Notes: generated by a model from the letters alone, not told the origin. Shown: positions 3,737 to 40,277, numbered from the stretch's first letter. The stretch: DNA of 64,000 nucleotides from Candidatus Aenigmatarchaeota archaeon (GCA_016198585.1 JACQII010000016.1:21078-85077); one strand, 5' to 3'. A program made the numbers and translations.

Positions 3737-5203
3737 TCAGCACATCCGCAGGCGGCGCTTGTCGTTGACCTTCGTGATCGCGCCGGAGATCACGCGGTTG
3801 ACCTTCTTCTCCTTGAAGACGCGGACGACCCGCCAGCTCTGGTTGAAGACCCCTCTCGAGGGCGCGAAGACCACCACCTCCCAGAACAGGCCGTTCCCCG
3901 ACCGGGAGATGCGCGGGTCGCGCAGCAGCGGCACGAGGACGAGGACGCCCGCCCGCAGCACGAACCCGACCAGGAAGAGGAGCTGGAGTCCAGCGAACCA
4001 GAGGAACGTCGACCCCTGGAAGCTCTGGGCTAAGACGCCGCCCACCAGCGCACCGGTCAGGAGCGCGAGCTCCTTGAGGGTGTTGTGGATCGCGAGGAAG
4101 CGGGGCCGCTGGCGGTCAGGGGTGACGCCGATCAGCATCGTGAACGATGACAGGTCGAAGGCCGACCAGGCGAAGCCGCTCAGCATCTCGATCACGACGG
4201 CCTCCAGGGGGTTGGCGGCGAAAACCCACGCGAGCGGAATCACCACGATGAGGATCGAGGAGATGCGGATCATGTGCTTCTCGCCTATCCGGTCAGCCAG
4301 CCTGCCCCAGTAGGGGTGGGAGAAGATCTCGACCCCGCTCCGCAGGACAGCAGCAATCGCGAACCAGAAGTACCCGATCGCGAGGTCTTCGAGCATGAAG
4401 ACGGTGAAGAACGGTGAGGTGATCCGGACCGAGAAGTGGAAGAGCAGGATGAAGACGGTGAAGAGGAAGAAGTTCCGGTTCACCGCCAGGCTGCGCGGCA
4501 GGTCGCGGATTCCCAGGTTGAAGGTCCGGCGGTAGAAGAACGCCGACCGGAAGGGCGTCTCGAAGATGAGGGCGATGAAGAAGGTCGAGACCATCCCGAC
4601 CGCGACTGCCACCAGGAAGAGGGCGCCGAACCCGTAGACGAGCAGGACTTGACCGGCGACCAGGAGCGACACCAGGCCCGACACTCCCATGATCATGTTG
4701 CGCTTGCCGAAATACCGGCCCCGTGTCGCGCGCGGAACCGCGTCGGCCATCATGCTCGACTGGGCCGGCCAGCGGAAGCCCAGGCAGAAGCTCGAGGCTG
4801 CCAGCGAGGCGATGATCACGTAGACCGCGAAGGTGCTCGGCCCCTGTGGGATGAAGAAAGGCAATGCAGCAAGCGGGATCCAGAAGAGCCGGCTCAGGAG
4901 GGAAGCTGCGACCCAGACAGTCTTCCTGCTGCCGATCCGCTCGATCATCTTCGCGCCCGGGATCAGCGCGATCATGCTCGCGAAGGAGATCAGCGAGCTG
5001 AGGAGGCCGATTTCATAGTGCGATGCCCGGTACGAGAGCGCGAGGGGGGTGGCATAGGTGTTGACGATCTGCGTCCCTGCCGTCGAGAACGCGCCTTGCC
5101 GGTCGTAGTTCTTCAGGTTCCGGTCCTCGCTTCCCGTCTCGCCTGCCGGCCGCCGCGGCTGCTCATGGAGGCGGACGTACCACCGCTCCTTGCCCTCGAT
5201 CAT
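3737..5203 (-). CDS. MFS transporter
   Basis: About 12 hydrophobic segments; IERIGSRK and WGRLADRIGEK loop motifs; RGRYFG. Confidence 0.88.
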   Translation of the reverse strand: MIEGKERWYVRLHEQPRRPAGETGSEDRNLKNYDRQGAFSTAGTQIVNTYATPLALSYRASHYEIGLLSSLISFASMIALIPGAKMIERIGSRKTVWVAASLLSRLFWIPLAALPFFIPQGPSTFAVYVIIASLAASSFCLGFRWPAQSSMMADAVPRATRGRYFGKRNMIMGVSGLVSLLVAGQVLLVYGFGALFLVAVAVGMVSTFFIALIFETPFRSAFFYRRTFNLGIRDLPRSLAVNRNFFLFTVFILLFHFSVRITSPFFTVFMLEDLAIGYFWFAIAAVLRSGVEIFSHPYWGRLADRIGEKHMIRISSILIVVIPLAWVFAANPLEAVVIEMLSGFAWSAFDLSSFTMLIGVTPDRQRPRFLAIHNTLKELALLTGALVGGVLAQSFQGSTFLWFAGLQLLFLVGFVLRAGVLVLVPLLRDPRISRSGNGLFWEVVVFAPSRGVFNQSWRVVRVFKEKKVNRVISGAITKVNDKRRLRMC

Positions 5204-8430: not shown

Positions 8431-8541
8431 GGGGTCATAGGCTAGTGGCAGACCGGCTGGCTCCAGTCCTGGAGAACGGACGCGAAATGCGGATGACCGT
8501 GAAGCAACCAGCATGTGGGAGTTCGATTCTCCCTGACCCCA
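8431..8541 (+). tRNA. tRNA-Trp(CCA) with ~40-nt intron at 37/38 (8467-8506)
   Basis: Acceptor GGGGTCA/TGACCCC with A73; anticodon stem GCTGG/CCAGC with CT-CCA-G; T-arm GGGAG-TTCGATT-CTCCC. Confidence 0.88.
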
Positions 8542-32136: not shown

Positions 32137-32256
32137 GCCTCCGTAGCTCAGCCGGTTGACTTTCTTGGGGAGAAAGCCGACAGAGAACCAGAAGGTCCGG
32201 CAGAGAGCACGAGTTTCGTAAACTCGGGGTCGAGGGTTCGATTCCCTCCGGGGGCT
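32137..32256 (+). tRNA. tRNA-Thr(CGT) with ~45-nt D-loop intron (32158-32202)
   Basis: Acceptor GCCTCCG/CGGGGGC with T73; anticodon stem CGAGT/ACTCG with TT-CGT-AA; BHB helix CCGG/CCGG with TTG and CAG bulges. Confidence 0.9.
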
Positions 32257-32433
32257 CTCGCCTCAGCTGCGGTAGGTGACGCCCACCGGCTCGATAATGA
32301 CCTGCCGGTCGCCGCGCTCGACCGGATCGAGTTTCCCGTAGTCGACCACGTCCGTGTACTCCCGGTCCATCATCTTTCTTCGTGCGCAATTTTTTAAAGA
32401 GGTTTATATGCTCCGTCGCGAAATTCCATCCAC

Positions 32434-32554
32434 GGGGCCATGGTGTAATGGCCAGCATTGGAGCTTTGGGTGACCCTTTCTTCCGAAGAAAGCGTCAACG
32501 GAAAGACGGGGTGAAAAAGAGCTTCCGATCCCGGTTCGAGTCCGGGTGGCCCCA
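32434..32554 (+). tRNA. tRNA-Pro(TGG) with ~49-nt intron at 37/38 (32471-32519)
   Basis: Acceptor GGGGCCA/TGGCCCC; anticodon stem GGAGC/GCTTC with TT-TGG-G; T-arm CCCGG-TTCGAGT-CCGGG. Confidence 0.85.
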
Positions 32555-32583
32555 TTTAAATAGATGACCGGGGTAATCTGTAT

Positions 32584-33144
32584 ATGGTCGATCCCAAGGA
32601 CTGCCTCTTCTGCAGGATCGTGCAAGGCGAAATCCCCTCCAAAAAGGTCTACGAAGATTCAGGCGCCCTAGCCTTCCTGGACATCAATCCCCGCAATCCG
32701 GGCCACACTCTCGTCATCCCCAAGCGGCACGCCGAAACGATCTTCGATCTCCCTGAAGCTGAGGCTGCGCGGCTCTTCCCAGCGGTGAAGAAGGTCGCCG
32801 CCATGGTCAAGTCAGGGATGCAGGCCCAGGGCATCTCCATCTGCCAGAACAACGGCTCGGCCGCCGGCCAGGTGGTCGGCCACCTCTACGTCCATGTCAT
32901 CCCCCGTTTCCTGAGCGAGGGCCCGCCCGCGCTCGAGAACATGCTGCCCATCAAGAAGATGGATGAGAAGGCTCTCGACAAGATCGCCGCGTCCATCAAA
33001 GGCGCGCCCGCGACCGGCGCGCGCCTGGAGGAGCCACCGCGGGCAGCGGAGAAGCCAGCAGCCCCCGCCGAGGAGCGGCGCCAGAAGCCGGCCTCGGACG
33101 ACGAGGAAAGCGGCGACTTCGAAGAGATCGACTTCAATTTCTGA
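32584..33144 (+). CDS. HIT family protein with variant motif HxYxH and acidic tail
   Basis: CLFCRI, FLDINP, GHTLVIPKRH, GQVVGHLYVHVIPR. Confidence 0.85.
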   Translation: MVDPKDCLFCRIVQGEIPSKKVYEDSGALAFLDINPRNPGHTLVIPKRHAETIFDLPEAEAARLFPAVKKVAAMVKSGMQAQGISICQNNGSAAGQVVGHLYVHVIPRFLSEGPPALENMLPIKKMDEKALDKIAASIKGAPATGARLEEPPRAAEKPAAPAEERRQKPASDDEESGDFEEIDFNF

Positions 33145-33169
33145 CCCGTTCCTGGAAGGCGCAGGCCTG

Positions 33170-33589
33170 CTAGACAGGCGGCCGTTTCTGTTCCTGGGCT
33201 GCACGGATCCGTCCGGCCAGGTCTTGGAGCGCCGCGGGGTCTGCTTTTTTCCCGCCGCCGGCGACGAACGGCCGGCCGGCGGGCAGCGGGTAGAGCTTGA
33301 GGTGCGCGTGGGGGACTTCCAGCCCTTCGGCCAGCAGGATGACACGTGGGACCTGGAGCGCCCGTTCCAGGAGCGTGCCCACGGTCCGGGCCGCGGCAAG
33401 GAAAGCCAGGTACCTGGACTCGGGTAGCCGGAAGACGTACGAGTCTTCGTGGGCCTTGGTCATCAGGACCGTCATCCCTTCCGTCGTGGGGAAGAGGTCG
33501 AGGATCGCGAGAAAGTCAGCGGACTCCCAGACCTTCGCTGCCGGGAGATCGCCGCGTGCGATCCTGCAGAAGGCGCAGTCCATGCACAC
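33170..33589 (-). CDS. HIT family protein with variant motif HxHxK
   Basis: CAFCRI, ILDLFP, EVPHAHLKLYP. Confidence 0.82.
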   Translation of the reverse strand: MCMDCAFCRIARGDLPAAKVWESADFLAILDLFPTTEGMTVLMTKAHEDSYVFRLPESRYLAFLAAARTVGTLLERALQVPRVILLAEGLEVPHAHLKLYPLPAGRPFVAGGGKKADPAALQDLAGRIRAAQEQKRPPV

Positions 33590-33659
33590 ACCTGCGCTCC
33601 GGGACTTAAATGGTTGCGGGCCTCCCTTTTAATTCCCCTGCACGCCAATATGAAGCACC

Positions 33660-33775
33660 GCGCCGGTAGTCTAGCGGTAGGATCCAGATCGTTGGAAGCG
33701 GTGAGCCACGGCGATGACCTTCCCAAGGAGAAGCCTTCCAAGCCTGTGACGCGGGTTCGATTCCCGCCCGGCGCA
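33660..33775 (+). tRNA. tRNA-Gly(TCC) with ~45-nt intron at non-canonical position 29/30 (33688-33732)
   Basis: Acceptor GCGCCGG/CCGGCGC with A73; removing 33688-33732 restores anticodon stem CAGGC/GCCTG with CT-TCC-AA loop; T-arm GCGGG-TTCGATT-CCCGC. Confidence 0.85.
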
Positions 33776-33822
33776 TCCGTGGGAGCAACTCCCTTTAAAT
33801 AGACAGACGCCAAGAAAGGCCC

Positions 33823-34122
33823 ATGCACCCGCCCTGCCCCACCTGCAACGCGAAGCAGGTTGTCTACCGCGGCTACCGGTACAACCGCAAGACCCGCAAG
33901 CGGCTCCGGCTCTGCACGGCCTGCGGCAGGAAGTTCACCCCCGACGACGGCTTCTTCCGGATGCGCTTCTCCCCCAAGGAGATCACCAAAGCCGTCGCCC
34001 TCTACAAGAAAGGATTCTCCCTTGCCGAGGTGAAGGTGCGCATGGAGCAGGACGACGTCAAGGTCTCGCGCTGGACTATCCTGCGCTGGAGCAGGAAGTA
34101 CCATCTCCGGAAGGGCGTCTGA
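33823..34122 (+). CDS. IS1/IS6-like N-terminal zinc finger + HTH protein, no catalytic domain
   Basis: CPTC...GYR...LCTACGRKFT, then AVALYKKGFSLAEV...VSRWTILRW HTH; no DDE ORF follows. Confidence 0.7.
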   Translation: MHPPCPTCNAKQVVYRGYRYNRKTRKRLRLCTACGRKFTPDDGFFRMRFSPKEITKAVALYKKGFSLAEVKVRMEQDDVKVSRWTILRWSRKYHLRKGV

Positions 34123-34699
34123 TCCTGCCCGCCCATCCCCTGCCCAGCGGACCGGGCAGCATATCCCGTAAAGATGACAGATAAAAGGAGAAGGGTGGTC
34201 GTCTGGCACGAGCCCGGCCACCCCCCTCCCCCATGTTGGTCAGCGACGCGCCCGTGCGGCCGGGATTGCCGCAGGTGCGAAGGTCCGACCACGGCGTCCG
34301 TGGTTGTGCACGTAGGCAGGTTTTGGGCCCCTGTCCGATGTGGATGGGCGGTCCTGGTCGCCTACGGTCCGATGGCTCTTCTGCGTCGTTCGCTGCTTTC
34401 CCATGTCCTGCCTCGCGGAGTCAGCTGCCACGCGGCCGCTGCCCGTCCCCGCGAACAGGGGTCCTCCCGTCCGGGTTCTCGACCTGTCGCAGGCCCTCCT
34501 CCTGTGCAGTCGGGGTGGCGCGTCGAGCGTCTTCCCTGTCGACTGCTGCAGAGTGGACTCTGGCGCCGGCAAGCCGCGGACCGCGGCCGGAGAGGTGCTT
34601 TGGGTGCATGATCGCGAATCTCCGCACGAGGGAACGGAACGTGAACCCGGGACTCCTGCATCCCGTCGCAGGAGGCCCCACACAAAGGCGGGAAAAGGG

Positions 34700-34773
34700 A
34701 ACCAGCCGGGGATTTTTTTTTGGGAAAGGGGAAGAGGGTTTTACGCACCGTCACGGCGCAACCCCGGCTGATT
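34700..34773 (-). ncRNA. Candidate structured RNA, sibling copy 1
   Basis: On the minus strand: 12-bp stem AATCAGCCGGGG/CCCCGGCTGGTT, inner hairpin GCGCCG-TGA-CGGTGC and a C/U-rich loop. Confidence 0.45.
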
Positions 34774-34826
34774 CCTGCACGACCCGTGGACGCGGGCGCA
34801 ACCCACGGTAGAGAAAGGGGAAAAAC

Positions 34827-34898
34827 AACCAGCCGAGGAATTTCGGGAAAGGGGGAGGAGGGTTTTACGCACCGGTCAAGGCGCAACCTCGGCTGATT
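34827..34898 (-). ncRNA. Candidate structured RNA, sibling copy 2
   Basis: On the minus strand: stem AATCAGCCGAGG/CCTCGGCTGGTT (compensatory G-C to A-T versus copy 1), same inner hairpin, loop containing CCCTCCTCCCCC. Confidence 0.45.
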
Positions 34899-36019
34899 GT
34901 CAATACGGTATGGGCACGAACGCAACCCACCAGAAACTTCAGGGGGGAAAGGAAGGCCGGCGAGGACACTGCTCGCCTAGGTACGAGCAGAACCTCAGGT
35001 TGGTTATTTCCGCCTCCGCCGTTGTCGAGGGACACGGAGCGTGAGGACCTGTTCCCAAATACCGGCCCCCCTTTCCCGAATCGCCATGCGATGAAGGCGC
35101 GGGCCGGCCCCAGGATGCGGCACACATCCGGAACCGGCTCGCGCGGCTGCCACCCACCATGTCCCCTTGGATGCTGCGGGAGAGGGGTCGATGACAGCAG
35201 AACGAATGTGCGTGGGCAGGAGGACTTCTAGCCTTCTAGCGAGTTTTGCGGCCCCTGACCTTCCTTCGCGTGTTGCCGGACGCGACCGGCAAGGAGGGGG
35301 AGGCCAACCTGCCCGATTCAATGCGGTGACTATGCGGTGGAAGGCGGGAGCCGGCCCAGAGTCGCTGAGGGGTTTGGGGAGGGACAGCGGACTGCTGGGA
35401 CCGGCTCGACGCCGCGGAGGAGGGAGGCCTGACCTGCCAGTCCAGACCACTCCGCCGCAAGGAAGCCTCGCCTGGTTTAAGGGACCCACCACTACCATCC
35501 AGGTGGCGCTTCCGGAGAACAAGCTACGAACAGACAGACAAGAAGAGGTGCCGGCCTTCGGGGAGCCAGCATCTCGCTCTTTCACGCTCGCTTTCACGCG
35601 CAGGGTGGTGCGTGACCTTGCGGCCTTGGTCTTGGCAATGCAACACGAAGCAACACGAAGAGAAATCGATCAGGCGCGGACAGGCCTCCTGTCGTCAAGG
35701 CGTACGCCTCTCAGCGGCAGATGAACCCTCATTCCGCAGAACGCGTGCAGACACCGAACACGCCCCACAACCGCCTCCTGACCGAATGCGGACCAGTGGT
35801 CAGCCATGGACCATCATGTGGAGGATGGGCCCGGTCGGCCAGAGAAGTCGACGGAAGACAGGACCAGGGGCTCGCAGCGCACGACGGAAGTCCGCGCAGG
35901 AACGCGCAGAGTCAACCGCAAGCGTAAGGGAATGTCCCTTGCGAGCCGGTGTGCCAATGATGGCAGATGAACAGCGTTCAGGGAACGATGTTCGGTTGGT
36001 GATGTCTGGTGAAGCATGA

Positions 36020-38002
36020 TCAGCGGAATTCGATCCGTTCGAAGTCCGCTTTCCTGGCAAATTGCTCCGGGGCAGCGACGAAGACGGTGAGTGACCCGCT
36101 CTCGTAGGCCGCACGGGCGGCCTCTTGGAGCAGCGCATTCCTCACCCCCTCGGTCACGCAGATGAAATGCGGGGTTTCCCGGAGATCTGCCCGGATCTTG
36201 GTTCGGTCCGGGCTGGTCTCGATGGCGACGACCATCCTTTTATTGGCGTCTTCAAATATAAGCTTTTCCCCCTGCCGGTCGAAGATCCAGCCCGCCTCCT
36301 CGAGGTTGGAGATCACGAGGCTGATGTCCTTGGTCGACCGCTGCTGCGGCCTCGGGAAGTGGGCGTCGAATACCTTGTCGCCGGCCTCGGTGAGGAAGAA
36401 GAAGTGTAGCACGTTCCTGCCGATCTTGGCCTTCTTCCGGCCCACCAGGCCGGTCTCGATGAGCCGGCCGGCGGACTTCTCGAAGGTCTTGCCCGACATC
36501 TTCGCCTGGGTGTAGATCTGGGAGGCGAAGCTGCCTGCTGCGGCCCCGAGCGCCTGGACAATCTTCATACCCTGCTCGTCCGGTTCCTCAACTTCCAGGA
36601 CGGCGACCGCCCGCTGCGGCCGGACCGGAGGCAGCCTGGCCTTCATGATGCGCGCGATGTCCTCGTCCGTGACTTTCCCCTTTTCAAGCGGGTAGCGGGG
36701 AAATCCGATGGCAAACGGCTCGCGGAGCGACATCCTGCACATGATCAGGCCGTGGCCCACCGGGAGCAGCCGCAGGTAGGGCGTCTCCTCCTCGTCCAGG
36801 CCGAGCATGTTGCTCGCGTCCTGGATGTCCGAGGACTGCCTGGTGTCGAGACCGAGGTTCATGTAGATGTGGGTCGAGGTGTTGCCCAGCGCAGGGAAGG
36901 AGACCAGCGACGGATGCTGGTCGAGGTAGACTATGCCCATCCCCAGCTCGCGGACCTCACGGAACAGCAGCTCCATCACCGTCTCCGAACCGAGCTTGCG
37001 CGACTTCTCGCGGTTGAGCACGTGGTGGGCTTCCTCGAGGATGACCACGGCCTGGAGCTGCTCCTTCTGCCCCTTCACGAGGAGCCAGTCACGGATCCAT
37101 TGCAGGATGATCTCGATGAAGAAGGTCTTGTCGTTGACGTCCAGGGCGTCCAGCTCCAGGACCGTCACCCGGCCCGGCCGAAAGAAGTCCGAGGGCATCG
37201 ATCCCTCGGCGACGTCGAAGACCTCGCCGATCTCCTTGAAGCAGAGGCTCTCGAGCGGCCGCTCGGCCGTGGCAAGCCAGTTCCTCTCCCGGGAGCTGAC
37301 ACCCTCGGTCCCGTAGTCCGCGAGCCAGCGCCGCAGGTCTTGCATCCGCGGGTGCTGGTTCTCGAGGAAGACGTTGTCGAGGGCCTTGAGGATGACTGCC
37401 CGCCCGCCCCCGAGGAGCCAGTAGGCGTGGTCGAAGATCGAGGAGAACTCCTTCATCCACTGCGAGAGCTGGATGCCGGGCGGCGGCAGGAGCGGGTTGA
37501 ACCGGAAGGGAGAGACGTTCCTCCCGATCGTGAACAGGTCGATGCGGTCCCGCAGCCGCGTGGCTAGGAGGTCTTTGTAGTTCCGCTTGGAGAAGTCGAA
37601 CACGATGACCGGCACGTTCTGGTCGGAAAGCCGCTCGATCAGGGTGTAGGCGATGTTCGTCTTCCCGTAGCCTGACGACCCGAAGACGCCCAGGTGCGCG
37701 AGCAGGTCCTGCTTCTTGATGGCGAACGGGTAGAGCCGTTTCCGGCCGTAGAGCGCGTCGCCGATGACGATCTCGCCCTTCGACTCGGCCGGGTTGGGCG
37801 GCTCGCGGAGGATCGCGCTTTTCAGGTCAGGATCGGCGAACACCGCTGCCTTGATCACGTCGACGAGCTCGAAGATCCGCTGCTTGGTATCCTCGTCCGC
37901 GAGGAGGTAGGCCCTGCTGAGCCGGGCCGCATTCTCCCTTCCCAGGACCGGGACCAGCCGCCGGATCTCGTCGCTGACGAGCTTCTCCTGCATTCCGATC
38001 AT
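36020..38002 (-). CDS. HerA/VirB4-like ATPase (DUF87) with C-terminal winged-helix region
   Basis: GSSGYGKTN Walker A, FDFS, ILEEAHHVL Walker B, REVRELG, LDQHP. Confidence 0.82.
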   Translation of the reverse strand: MIGMQEKLVSDEIRRLVPVLGRENAARLSRAYLLADEDTKQRIFELVDVIKAAVFADPDLKSAILREPPNPAESKGEIVIGDALYGRKRLYPFAIKKQDLLAHLGVFGSSGYGKTNIAYTLIERLSDQNVPVIVFDFSKRNYKDLLATRLRDRIDLFTIGRNVSPFRFNPLLPPPGIQLSQWMKEFSSIFDHAYWLLGGGRAVILKALDNVFLENQHPRMQDLRRWLADYGTEGVSSRERNWLATAERPLESLCFKEIGEVFDVAEGSMPSDFFRPGRVTVLELDALDVNDKTFFIEIILQWIRDWLLVKGQKEQLQAVVILEEAHHVLNREKSRKLGSETVMELLFREVRELGMGIVYLDQHPSLVSFPALGNTSTHIYMNLGLDTRQSSDIQDASNMLGLDEEETPYLRLLPVGHGLIMCRMSLREPFAIGFPRYPLEKGKVTDEDIARIMKARLPPVRPQRAVAVLEVEEPDEQGMKIVQALGAAAGSFASQIYTQAKMSGKTFEKSAGRLIETGLVGRKKAKIGRNVLHFFFLTEAGDKVFDAHFPRPQQRSTKDISLVISNLEEAGWIFDRQGEKLIFEDANKRMVVAIETSPDRTKIRADLRETPHFICVTEGVRNALLQEAARAAYESGSLTVFVAAPEQFARKADFERIEFR

Positions 38003-38577: not shown

Positions 38578-38817
38578 CGTTCCTCTTCTGCCTCGCGGTC
38601 GCGGGCGCTTCTCCCCTGACCCAGGGAGCGCACTTTCGCCGCCGCACGAGGAAAGTCTTCAGGTCGGCGACAAAAGACACCCTGGGTCTGACTTGCGTAT
38701 TCCTTGGCGCTGAAGCTAATAAAGGGCGGTCTCTCCGGAACCAGAGCGCCACCGGGAACCGGCCAAGCTATTTATGTCTGCGCACTAACAGGAGCCTATA
38801 AGAGTTTTGTGAGTGCC

Positions 38818-39447
38818 ATGGTGTTCCGAGGCCTGAAAAAGATGCTCACCCGCATCTCCGCCCTGTTCAAGAAGCGGGGGGAAGTCAAGATCGGCCTCTA
38901 CGGGCCCGTGAACTCAGGCAAGACCACCCTCGCTAACCGCATCTGCAAGGACTGGATCGGCCAGGAGATGGGCACAGCCTCGATCATCCCCCACGAGACC
39001 CGCGAGATCCAGATGAAGGAGAAGGTTACCATCAAGCGCGGCAAGAAGTCGCTCATGTTCAACCTCGTCGACACTCCTGGGATCGCCACCAAGATCGATT
39101 ACGAAGACTTCCTAAAGCACGGCCTCGGGAAGAAGCAGGCGAAGACCCGGGCGCGGGAAGCCACCAAAGGCGTGATCGAGGCCATCAAGTGGCTGGACGA
39201 CATGGACCTGGTCCTGGTCGTCCTGGACTCCACGCAGGATCCGCTCACCCAGGTGAACCTCACCATCCTCGGCAACCTCGACGCACGCGGCATCCCCTTC
39301 CTGATCGTGGCCAACAAGGCCGACAAGGGCGACCACCACACGAAGAAGGTCAAGGAAGCGTTCCAGAGCTACAAGACCGTCGCCGTCTCCGCGAAGGACG
39401 GCATCAACATTGAGGGCCTGTACGACGCCCTCCTGGAGCAGCTATGA
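38818..39447 (+). CDS. oapA: Era-like small GTPase OapA
   Basis: GPVNSGKTTLANRI, PHETR, DTPG, ANKAD, SAK; followed by DUF2073 and Zn-ribbon genes. Confidence 0.82.
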   Translation: MVFRGLKKMLTRISALFKKRGEVKIGLYGPVNSGKTTLANRICKDWIGQEMGTASIIPHETREIQMKEKVTIKRGKKSLMFNLVDTPGIATKIDYEDFLKHGLGKKQAKTRAREATKGVIEAIKWLDDMDLVLVVLDSTQDPLTQVNLTILGNLDARGIPFLIVANKADKGDHHTKKVKEAFQSYKTVAVSAKDGINIEGLYDALLEQL

Positions 39448-39872: not shown

Positions 39873-40277
39873 ATGCCGAACAAGTGCACGCACTGCGGGA
39901 CCGTCCACCCGGACGACGCCACCTACCTGCTGTCGGGATGCAGCCAGTGCGGCTCGAAGTTCTTCTTCTACGTGCGCCAGGACGTGCTGGAAAGGATCGA
40001 GAAGGAGGTCGAGGAGATCACCCAGGACCAGATCAAGGAGATCGAGCAGGACGTCCGTGAGATCGCTGGCGTCGAGGACGAGACCGTCATTCTCGACCTC
40101 GAGGCCATCCGCGTGGTGCAGCCAGGGAAGTACAAGATCGATGTCACCACCCTCTTCAACCAACGCCCGCTCGTCATCCGGACCGGCGAGGGCAAGTACA
40201 AGCTCGACCTCTCGACCATCAGCCGCCAAAAGGACAGGAAAACCCCGGCGCCGCAGTCCGAGGAGAAGGATGAGTAG
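39873..40277 (+). CDS. oapC: Zn-ribbon protein OapC
   Basis: MPNKCTHCG...LSGCSQCGSKFFFY; GKYKID motifs. Confidence 0.8.
   Translation: MPNKCTHCGTVHPDDATYLLSGCSQCGSKFFFYVRQDVLERIEKEVEEITQDQIKEIEQDVREIAGVEDETVILDLEAIRVVQPGKYKIDVTTLFNQRPLVIRTGEGKYKLDLSTISRQKDRKTPAPQSEEKDE

Follow-up and report, generated by a model that had tools for sequence, protein, structure and literature searches.

A tandem pair of structured RNA modules in a DPANN-type archaeon with close homologues beside ruvC in Planctomycetota

The DNA analysed here, called the window throughout, is a stretch of 64,000 nucleotides from a DPANN-type archaeon. The host assembly comprises 0.94 Mb, has a GC content of 63% and is 76% complete. 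The window encodes two tRNAs with introns of 44 and 56 nt, a proteasome subunit, FttA/aCPSF1, OapC and a HerA-like ATPase. The features of interest lie in the long spacer that adjoins the herA-like gene (Table 1). Open reading frames in this spacer lack coding composition in a GC3 screen (real genes have a GC3 of about 0.85 and a GC2 of about 0.4), and none has a Pfam match; the spacer, with the features c1 and c2 inside it, is therefore regarded as non-coding. Both flanking genes are conserved across the archaeal family. The spacer itself is not: in the related genus G004 it measures only about 270 nt, and the same-genus genome G001 has 2.5 kb of unrelated sequence at this position. A Logan contig (run SRR12113383), which is an independent assembly, is 100% identical to window positions 32230-37468; the junctions with archaeal genes are thus not a binning artefact.

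Two tandem hairpin units, c1 and c2, are found at positions 34690-34942, with a period of about 125 nt. A repeat search of the window returned direct-repeat families D1-D3 and D5, spaced 124-127 nt apart, and inverted repeats I5 and I6, which have 14-nt arms (93% complementary) with 48-50 nt between them. On the minus strand, RNA folding gives each unit an outer stem of 14-15 bp, an inner hairpin of 6 bp and a long unpaired loop rich in C and U; the loop sequences CCCUCUUCCCCUUUCCC and CCCUCCUCCCCCUUUCCC were verified in the two units. The fold energies are -34.3 (c1) and -31.1 kcal/mol, with z scores of -4.3 and -4.9, and none of 200 shuffled sequences equalled the fold of either unit. The plus-strand fold of the same two units is weaker (z = -2.3 and -1.5). 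The feature is real and beyond chance. An earlier note, made from the sequence alone, had described two sibling units resembling structured RNA on the minus strand. This description is right in its essentials, fold and strand alike; the dimensions needed correction, as the outer stem has 14-15 bp rather than 12 and the units reach about 85 nt when the tails are included.

Table 1. Positions of the hairpin units, their parts and related features (window coordinates unless a contig is named)
Feature	Position	Strand	Remarks
Non-coding spacer	34123..36019		1.9 kb, between a 99-aa zinc-ribbon gene and the 3' end of the herA-like gene
c1	34690..34775	minus	Covariance model R2, 96.5 bits, E 7.5e-28; fold -34.3 kcal/mol, z -4.3
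c1 outer stem	34775-34762 paired with 34711-34698	minus	
c1 inner hairpin	34759-34745	minus	Followed by GUAAAA
c1 C/U loop	complement of 34722-34738	minus	Followed by a run of nine A
c1 U/C-rich tail	34697-34690	minus	
c2	34817..34900	minus	Covariance model R2, 93.3 bits; architecture as c1, loop CCCUCCUCCCCCUUUCCC, tail UUUUUCCCC
Spacer hairpin B1, upstream of c1	34776..34816	minus	ACCGUGGGUUGCGCCCGCGUCCACGGGU, then GUCGUGCAGG; repeat family D5
Spacer unit B2, upstream of c2	34901..34942	minus	80% identical to B1 over 20 nt
Possible decayed third tandem copy	34915..35006	minus	AACCAACCUGAGGUU, 7-bp hairpin, CCUUCCUUUCCCCCCUGA; closing stem lost
Inverted partial copy	35045..35090	plus	Inverted repeats I2, I3 and I9; nhmmer 35045-35079 (+), E 0.73
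c3	C14:62942-63026		Follows a membrane-protein gene (26 nt past its stop codon) and precedes a 103-aa gene by about 40 nt; same strand throughout
c4, diverged	C15:14042-14130		18.9 bits with model R1

A B element and a c element together make up the tandem unit of about 125 nt, and nhmmer with a two-unit profile scored the two units at 123 and 119 bits. The motif GGTTGCG is present four times, as the earlier note had counted; the second small hairpins that it had drawn around this motif are weak (z = -0.7 for B1 and +0.4 for the other). The 3' end of B1 resembles, when the alignment is compared by eye, a stretch (GAGUCGUGAAUAUU) that lies just upstream of the 3' domain in the bacterial loci described below. 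The possible third tandem copy is a weak match to model R2 (7.3 bits, E 0.32, with filters off). In the inverted partial copy, the plus-strand sequence CCCCCTTTCCCGAA is a perfect 14-nt complement of the plus-strand box of c2 at 34842-34855, and this stretch is most likely an inverted copy that has decayed. A reading of the whole 1.9-kb spacer as decayed tandem units was rejected: nhmmer gave only the two intact units and one marginal inverted fragment.

Besides the tandem pair, the same genome has two further copies, c3 and c4. Both are on archaeal contigs. C14 encodes RadA with an intein (translated sequence read by eye), and C15 encodes an archaeal-type AlaRS together with proteins that have many N-glycosylation sequons, as archaeal surface proteins do (also by eye). 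Copies c1, c2 and c3 score 90-97 bits with model R2 and align end to end. These three intact copies are all downstream of genes on the same strand; c1 and c2 lie 1.1-1.3 kb after herA. Copy c4 overlaps the 5' end of an XRE-type ORF, which is now without a canonical start codon, and this looks like insertion damage rather than function. It also adjoins a gene for an ECF-type sigma factor and is divergent from a gene which, by its N-terminal sequence, was read as hsdM. No target-site duplications were seen in the flanking sequence of any of the four copies, and with four copies in all the element is not a high-copy MITE. An archaeal TATA or BRE box is not evident by eye upstream of any of these copies.

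Rfam 15 gives no family for the element. At the gathering threshold, the whole window matches only the two tRNAs; at E <= 10, positions 34300-35400 yield only chance matches of miRNA type elsewhere in that region, and the bacterial homologue loci return only tRNAs. Relatives were sought with covariance models, the first of which (R1) was built from c1-c3. In 40 relatives, BLAST with the 256-nt region as query returned nothing beyond chance matches within coding sequences, and the model from c1-c3 found no homologue in 47 genomes of the family or in 91 of the order. With a later model, the element is present in one of 371 genomes of the phylum, which is this genome. Its absence from the same-genus genome G001 means that it is either recent or dispensable. 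The earlier note had recognised no exact family, and none is matched; its expectation of archaeal relatives failed, since every homologue found outside this genome is bacterial. 'Novel archaeal small RNA' is the wrong label for an element with bacterial relatives.

An exact-pattern scan of metagenome contigs followed by a covariance-model filter recovered six contigs with full-length matches (88-93 bits with R1). The bacterial homologues read GCTGGA or GCTGAA where a pattern scan of genome contigs had demanded GCTGKT, and the matches listed by that scan were all due to chance. These contigs come from soil, have a GC content of 73-76% and encode RuvC, IspD, IspF and large secreted proteins. Planctomycetota MAGs account for nearly all of their nearest named RuvC relatives (60-63% identity). 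Among 401 sampled Planctomycetota genomes, 25 match a model that combines archaeal and bacterial sequences, nearly always in one copy per genome; 37 arbitrary genomes from other bacterial phyla gave no convincing match and one weak one (56 nt, 27.6 bits). The bacterial homologues are up to 90% identical to the archaeal copies. The planctomycete small-RNA family is absent from Rfam 15, and no earlier description of a ruvC-convergent family of this kind in planctomycetes was found in literature searches.

In bacteria the element has a fixed address. In 20 of 27 loci, among them every main-type locus, it faces ruvC in convergent orientation and directly adjoins the 3' end of that gene, and this placement is kept while RuvC identity ranges from 42 to 88%. 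A tRNA gene is present on the other side in every bacterial locus scanned. Other sub-types occupy other fixed sites, one of them between smc and an lpxL-like gene; this smc-lpxL-linked sub-type is found in opposite orientations at one intergenic site in two planctomycete genomes. The five closest contigs have a conserved and structured non-coding region, some 190 nt long, in which the element makes up the 3' domain. RNAalifold predicts 57 pairs for the region, eight of them with compensatory changes, and its upstream part folds as a long hairpin with the invariant loop GAACUGCCCGACGA. Further upstream boxes are conserved with variable sequence between them: RTGCAA-N17-TAGTCT in one clade and TTGACC-N16/17-TTATTT in another. 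These boxes are predicted promoters. A sigma-70 consensus scan called no promoter in the bacterial loci, so the prediction is one of conservation in the alignment only; a terminator consensus scan likewise called none at the element.

The archaeal copies share with the planctomycete family the 14-bp clamp stem, the GGUUG junction, the variable and covarying hairpin, CGUAAAA, a pyrimidine tract ending in CCCCUUU(U)CCCGA, the closing stem and the U-rich tail. The full gene has, in addition, a structured 5' domain with its ACUGCCCGR loop, promoter-like boxes upstream and the convergent ruvC; near the archaeal copies there is no 5'-domain motif, and their flanks contain no ruvC remnant.

The helices are conserved through compensatory change. 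In an alignment of seven sequences, 98.6% of cells pair and six of the 14 outer-stem pairs show double changes; with 27 sequences, standard pairing is seen in 97.1% of stem cells, and double changes occur in 11 of 20 pairs. None of 500 shuffles of the larger alignment reached the observed values, and sliding the partner by 1-3 columns lowered pairing to 28-47%. On the strand with the C/U loop, the stem cells contain 43 G-U pairs against five A-C; the helix is therefore formed by that strand, which is the minus strand of the window. A G-C to A-U exchange between the copies and the asymmetry of G-U and A-C between strands, both noticed in the earlier note, were verified. Conservation also extends beyond the helices, to GGUUG, CGUAAAA and CCCCUUU(U)CCCGA; the pyrimidine tract between these boxes varies from 13 to 35 nt.

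The archaeal copies have kept this fold while diverging. Copies c1 and c2 differ by about 22% overall, and their six stem differences all fall within three compensated pairs. Copy c3 has lost a wobble pair by a change on both sides. The distal stems are unlike all bacterial versions and still pair: GGAAU/GUUCC in c1, ACAAU/GUUGU in c2 and GCGAA/UUC.. in c3. DNA-level processes can keep palindromes symmetric. However, the retention of G-U positions argues against homogenisation of a palindrome at the DNA level. The pattern suggests, and supports without proving, that the fold is still under selection at the RNA level in the archaeon.

Copy c2 is the archaeal copy nearest to the bacterial sequences. 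In the model alignment it is 84.7% identical to the metagenome loci L120 and L119, compared with 78.2% to c1 and 76.7% to c3; a BLAST alignment of 81 nt with L120 shows 90% identity. Copy c4 is 80.5% identical to L170, a member of the smc-linked bacterial sub-type. Two bacterial sub-types are thus represented among the archaeal copies, and transfer may have happened more than once. Homology to the bacterial loci covers about 85 nt plus about 15 nt upstream; the flanks, ruvC and the 5' domain are not shared, and no remnants of ruvC or of the 5' domain were found beside the archaeal copies. Since only this much is common, the archaeal copies are partial modules and not whole genes. The deep, syntenic spread in bacteria, set against a single archaeal genome, indicates the direction of movement: the module was apparently transferred horizontally from a bacterium to the archaeon. 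Other DNA of bacterial type adjoins the copies: beside c4 there is the ECF sigma factor gene, and the 103-aa gene that follows c3 has its best homologues (58-60%) on contigs of 67-73% GC which also carry bacterial-type genes (IspD, glycogen synthase); the element is absent upstream of these bacterial homologues.

The explanation that accounts best for these observations, and one that we consider probable, is that c1 and c2 represent the 3'-terminal module of a Planctomycetota small RNA, acquired horizontally and amplified in the archaeon, and belonging to the class that acts through a C-rich loop. Acquisition from Planctomycetota would have been followed by amplification, giving the tandem pair, its decayed neighbours and the two copies elsewhere. 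In the archaeon, RNA would be made from the minus strand, through read-through from herA or from a promoter that was not recognised; read-through is possible because all three intact copies are downstream of same-strand genes. In bacteria, the RNA would be transcribed from its own conserved promoter-like boxes. The 14-bp clamp and the small hairpin would hold open a loop of 30-50 nt, so that the C/U tract (CCUCCUCCCCC, CCCCUUUCCC; of CCUCC type and resembling an anti-Shine-Dalgarno (SD) sequence) could pair with SD-like mRNA tracts rich in G and A, in the manner of the C-rich-loop RNAs 6C, sX13, RsaE and CcsR/cuckoo. The exact CCUCC core is present in neither c1 nor c4. Alternatively, the tract may be bound by a protein that recognises pyrimidine tracts. 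The stem and U-rich tail would form the 3' end of the transcript or a terminator.

It is also a serious possibility, albeit an unlikely one, that the copies are inert relics of transferred bacterial DNA, duplicated by slippage in a fast-evolving spacer and functionless in the archaeon. Pairing would then persist because little time has elapsed or because palindromes correct themselves at the DNA level. This would fit the absence of the element from the same-genus genome and the rest of the 371 genomes of the phylum, the decayed copies adjoining intact ones, the hypervariability of the spacer among close relatives, the position of c3 and c4 beside bacterial-type genes and the lack of any visible archaeal promoter. 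It is harder to reconcile with two copies that are only 78.2% identical and yet have all six stem differences compensated, with G-U pairs (A-C mismatches in DNA) that have been retained and not homogenised, or with the keeping of four copies of two sub-types in a streamlined genome of 0.94 Mb. A second reading, which we regard as improbable, makes the element a small mobile palindrome, with stem arms that are terminal inverted repeats recognised by a transposase. There is a general likeness to Correia/NEMIS, REP and MITE elements, which are also short palindromes in several intergenic copies at gene ends, with terminator-like hairpins. The dispersed copies and local amplification, the disrupted start of the XRE gene, the two orientations of the smc-lpxL sub-type at one site in two planctomycete genomes and the crossing between domains could all be explained in this way. 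On the other hand, target-site duplications are seen at none of the four copies, and the outermost stem pairs covary, whereas ends bound by a transposase would be conserved. The copy number is very low for such an element (just four), and no transposase with matching ends was found. In the donor phylum, moreover, the element is single-copy, remains syntenic by ruvC down to 42% RuvC identity and is embedded in a longer conserved region that resembles RNA.

A purely mechanical role is conceivable too. The element could be mainly a hairpin terminator or 3'-end stabiliser, working in either direction and with an incidental C/U loop; the bacterial small RNA and the convergent ruvC would both terminate there, and in the archaeon it would end or stabilise transcripts such as the 3' UTR of herA or that of the membrane-protein gene upstream of c3. 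The U-rich tails after the stem (UUUUC, UUUUUCCCC), the abutment on the ruvC stop codon in every main-type locus and the position of c3, 26 nt past a stop codon, are as expected for a terminator. Pyrimidine tracts are, moreover, common in the host genome: there are 144 homopurine or homopyrimidine runs of at least 15 nt, some of them intergenic by eye. Yet the loop sequences GGUUG, CGUAAAA and CCCCUUU(U)CCCGAA show much stronger conservation than termination would require, intrinsic terminators do not typically have a loop of 50 nt (the terminator scan called none), and more than 1 kb separates c1 and c2 from the stop codon of herA; we give this role very little credence. Hardly any weight is given to a protein-binding site in DNA, such as the ORB boxes or iterons of a replication origin or the operator of a regulator. 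A purine box resembling a G-string (TTCGGGAAAGGGGG) does occur in direct and inverted orientation in the long non-coding spacer, and OapC and a GTPase that is possibly OapA-like are encoded 4-5 kb away. Both orc1/cdc6 genes, however, are on other contigs (C5 and C6), and the box is not enriched near either. An AT-rich unwinding element is absent, the lowest GC content being 0.59; the asymmetry of G-U and A-C and the covariation point to pairing in RNA; and the homologues are in bacteria, where ORB and Orc1 do not exist. Guide RNAs of the C/D-box or H/ACA type were considered and rejected, as box C and a k-turn are missing on both strands, no ANA box recurs consistently 3' of the stem and Rfam gives no snoRNA match; readings as a BHB motif or an integron attC site were rejected by eye because the required boxes are absent. 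A more speculative extension, to which we give only a very slim chance, is that the archaeon retains and multiplies a mimic of a bacterial small RNA because of a life on, or an exchange of material with, a planctomycete-like bacterium, and that the modules could act on bacterial rather than archaeal targets. They might titrate the partner or the targets of the host RNA, and the ECF-type sigma factor gene beside c4 may be cited in this connection. If true, a DPANN symbiont would be mimicking a regulatory RNA across domains, which would hint that its host is a bacterium.

Under the preferred reading, that of an acquired and amplified planctomycete module, the implications are twofold. Almost no RNA regulation is known in Planctomycetota, and a conserved, covarying family with a fixed address at ruvC offers an entry point. 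Transfer of a non-coding RNA from Bacteria to Archaea, with amplification and apparent maintenance of the fold, is rarely documented; it raises the questions of how compatible the module is with archaeal machinery and which organism is the ecological partner of the DPANN archaeon.

The element can be compared with several known RNAs. Like Y RNA and YrlA, it has a long terminal stem that clamps a large pyrimidine-rich internal loop and is followed by a U-rich tail. Unlike them, it has no helix signature for Ro binding, no tRNA-like module and no Rfam match; TROVE/Ro60 (PF05731) also has no match in the 76%-complete genome of the archaeon, in which the controls were positive. The Y-RNA analogy drawn in the earlier note is thereby lost. 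Small RNAs that pair through C-rich loops include 6C of Actinobacteria (PMC6486639) and sX13 of Xanthomonas (PMC3771888). With these and with RsaE/RoxS of Firmicutes, the element has in common a high-GC host and a single-stranded, C-rich loop, the functional pairing surface in those RNAs and presumably here, and their organisation as stand-alone genes with terminator hairpins is counted as a further likeness. It differs in having no sequence or covariance-model similarity to them, another architecture and a loop that is rich in C and U rather than a run of C. 6C has two hairpins with loops of at least six C, whereas the module here has one C/U loop.

The exposed, anti-SD-like C/U loop led the earlier note to the cuckoo and LhrC class of small RNAs, and by analogy this placement holds. 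The CcsR1-4 or cuckoo RNAs (alpha-r14) are multicopy, partly tandem modules of Alphaproteobacteria which expose CCUCCUCCC in a loop (PMC3927594, PMC4615179, PMC8034643). Each of their short, serially arranged hairpins presents the motif at its tip, in a small loop; here, there is instead a 14-bp clamp around a multi-element loop of 30-50 nt, with a second hairpin and the boxes GGUUG, CGUAAAA and CCCGAA. The hosts also differ, being Planctomycetota and one archaeon, and there is no Rfam match even at E <= 10. Copies c1 (CCCUCUUCCCC) and c4 are without the exact cuckoo motif. As in cuckoo, pairing is presumed to be with G-rich, SD-like tracts in mRNA, and the motif itself is found in c2 (CCCUCCUCCCCC) and in the closest (clade-1) bacterial homologues (CCUCCUCCCCC).

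The spacer between the gene for a 99-aa zinc-ribbon protein and herA is a non-coding hypervariable hotspot in genomes that are compact elsewhere. The zinc-ribbon gene itself is also found beside herA in related genera, with 74% nucleotide identity. Its product resembles InsA of IS1, with a zinc ribbon and, after it, a helix-turn-helix-like tail; DNA repeats might be a binding target of this protein. GGGGAGGAGG/CCTCCTCCCC hairpins are abundant in the spacer of G001, a genome of the same genus. Coordinates are collected in the table below.

Features of the window, of other contigs of the same genome (C14, C15) and of related loci
Feature	Location	Remarks
99-aa protein gene	window 33823-34122	zinc ribbon CxxC...CxxC, then helix-turn-helix-like tail
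Zinc-ribbon gene-herA spacer	window 34123-36019	1.9 kb
Same spacer, G001 (same genus)	L042 1273-3839	2.5 kb; sequence unrelated to window spacer
Same spacer, G004 (other genus)	L041 ~4340-4610	only ~270 nt
Intron-containing tRNA genes (2)	window 8431-8541 and 33660-33775	long introns, 44 and 56 nt; Rfam
MMR_HSR1 GTPase gene	window 38704-39447	possibly OapA-like
OapC 'origin-associated protein' gene	window 39873-40277	
103-aa gene	C14:62591-62902 (L026 2092-2403)	directly downstream of c3
RadA recombinase gene	C14:12510-14708	apparent homing-endonuclease-like insert
XRE-type HTH ORF	C15:13875-14066 (L072)	N-terminus overlapped by c4
Conserved terminator-like hairpin (bacterial contigs)	L120 699-716; aligned block in L136, L119, L140, L134	ATGGCG..CGCCAT, then AAGTTTTCC

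The C/U-loop hairpin module has two further copies in this genome, c3 and the diverged c4. The 103-aa gene beside c3 is a candidate for a further acquisition from bacteria: its best homologues (58-60%) lie on contigs of 67-73% GC with bacterial-type genes, and are flanked by LMW phosphatase and Kelch-repeat genes. The XRE-type ORF beside c4 has no ATG, GTG or TTG start. Next come a 154-aa gene and an ECF-type sigma-70 gene, on what is an archaeal contig, and the ORF's divergent neighbour is likely the hsdM gene of a type I R-M system.

In two planctomycete genomes, the smc-lpxL-linked module sub-type (positions 1501-1587 of both L170, from G274, and L171, from G114) has the same pair of genes on either side but is oriented oppositely with respect to them, which suggests either an inversion between the two arms of the stem or separate insertion events. 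At the bacterial small-RNA gene, the terminator-like hairpin lies ~40 nt upstream of the promoter-like boxes; it may be another small transcript, or mark where an upstream unit ends.

Both orc1/cdc6 genes are located outside the window contig (C5, ~88.4 kb; C6, ~30 kb); the OapC and MMR_HSR1 GTPase genes are nevertheless in the window. The two intron-bearing tRNA genes of the window were undetected by ARAGORN and detected by Rfam. The RadA gene on C14 seems to be split by an intein.
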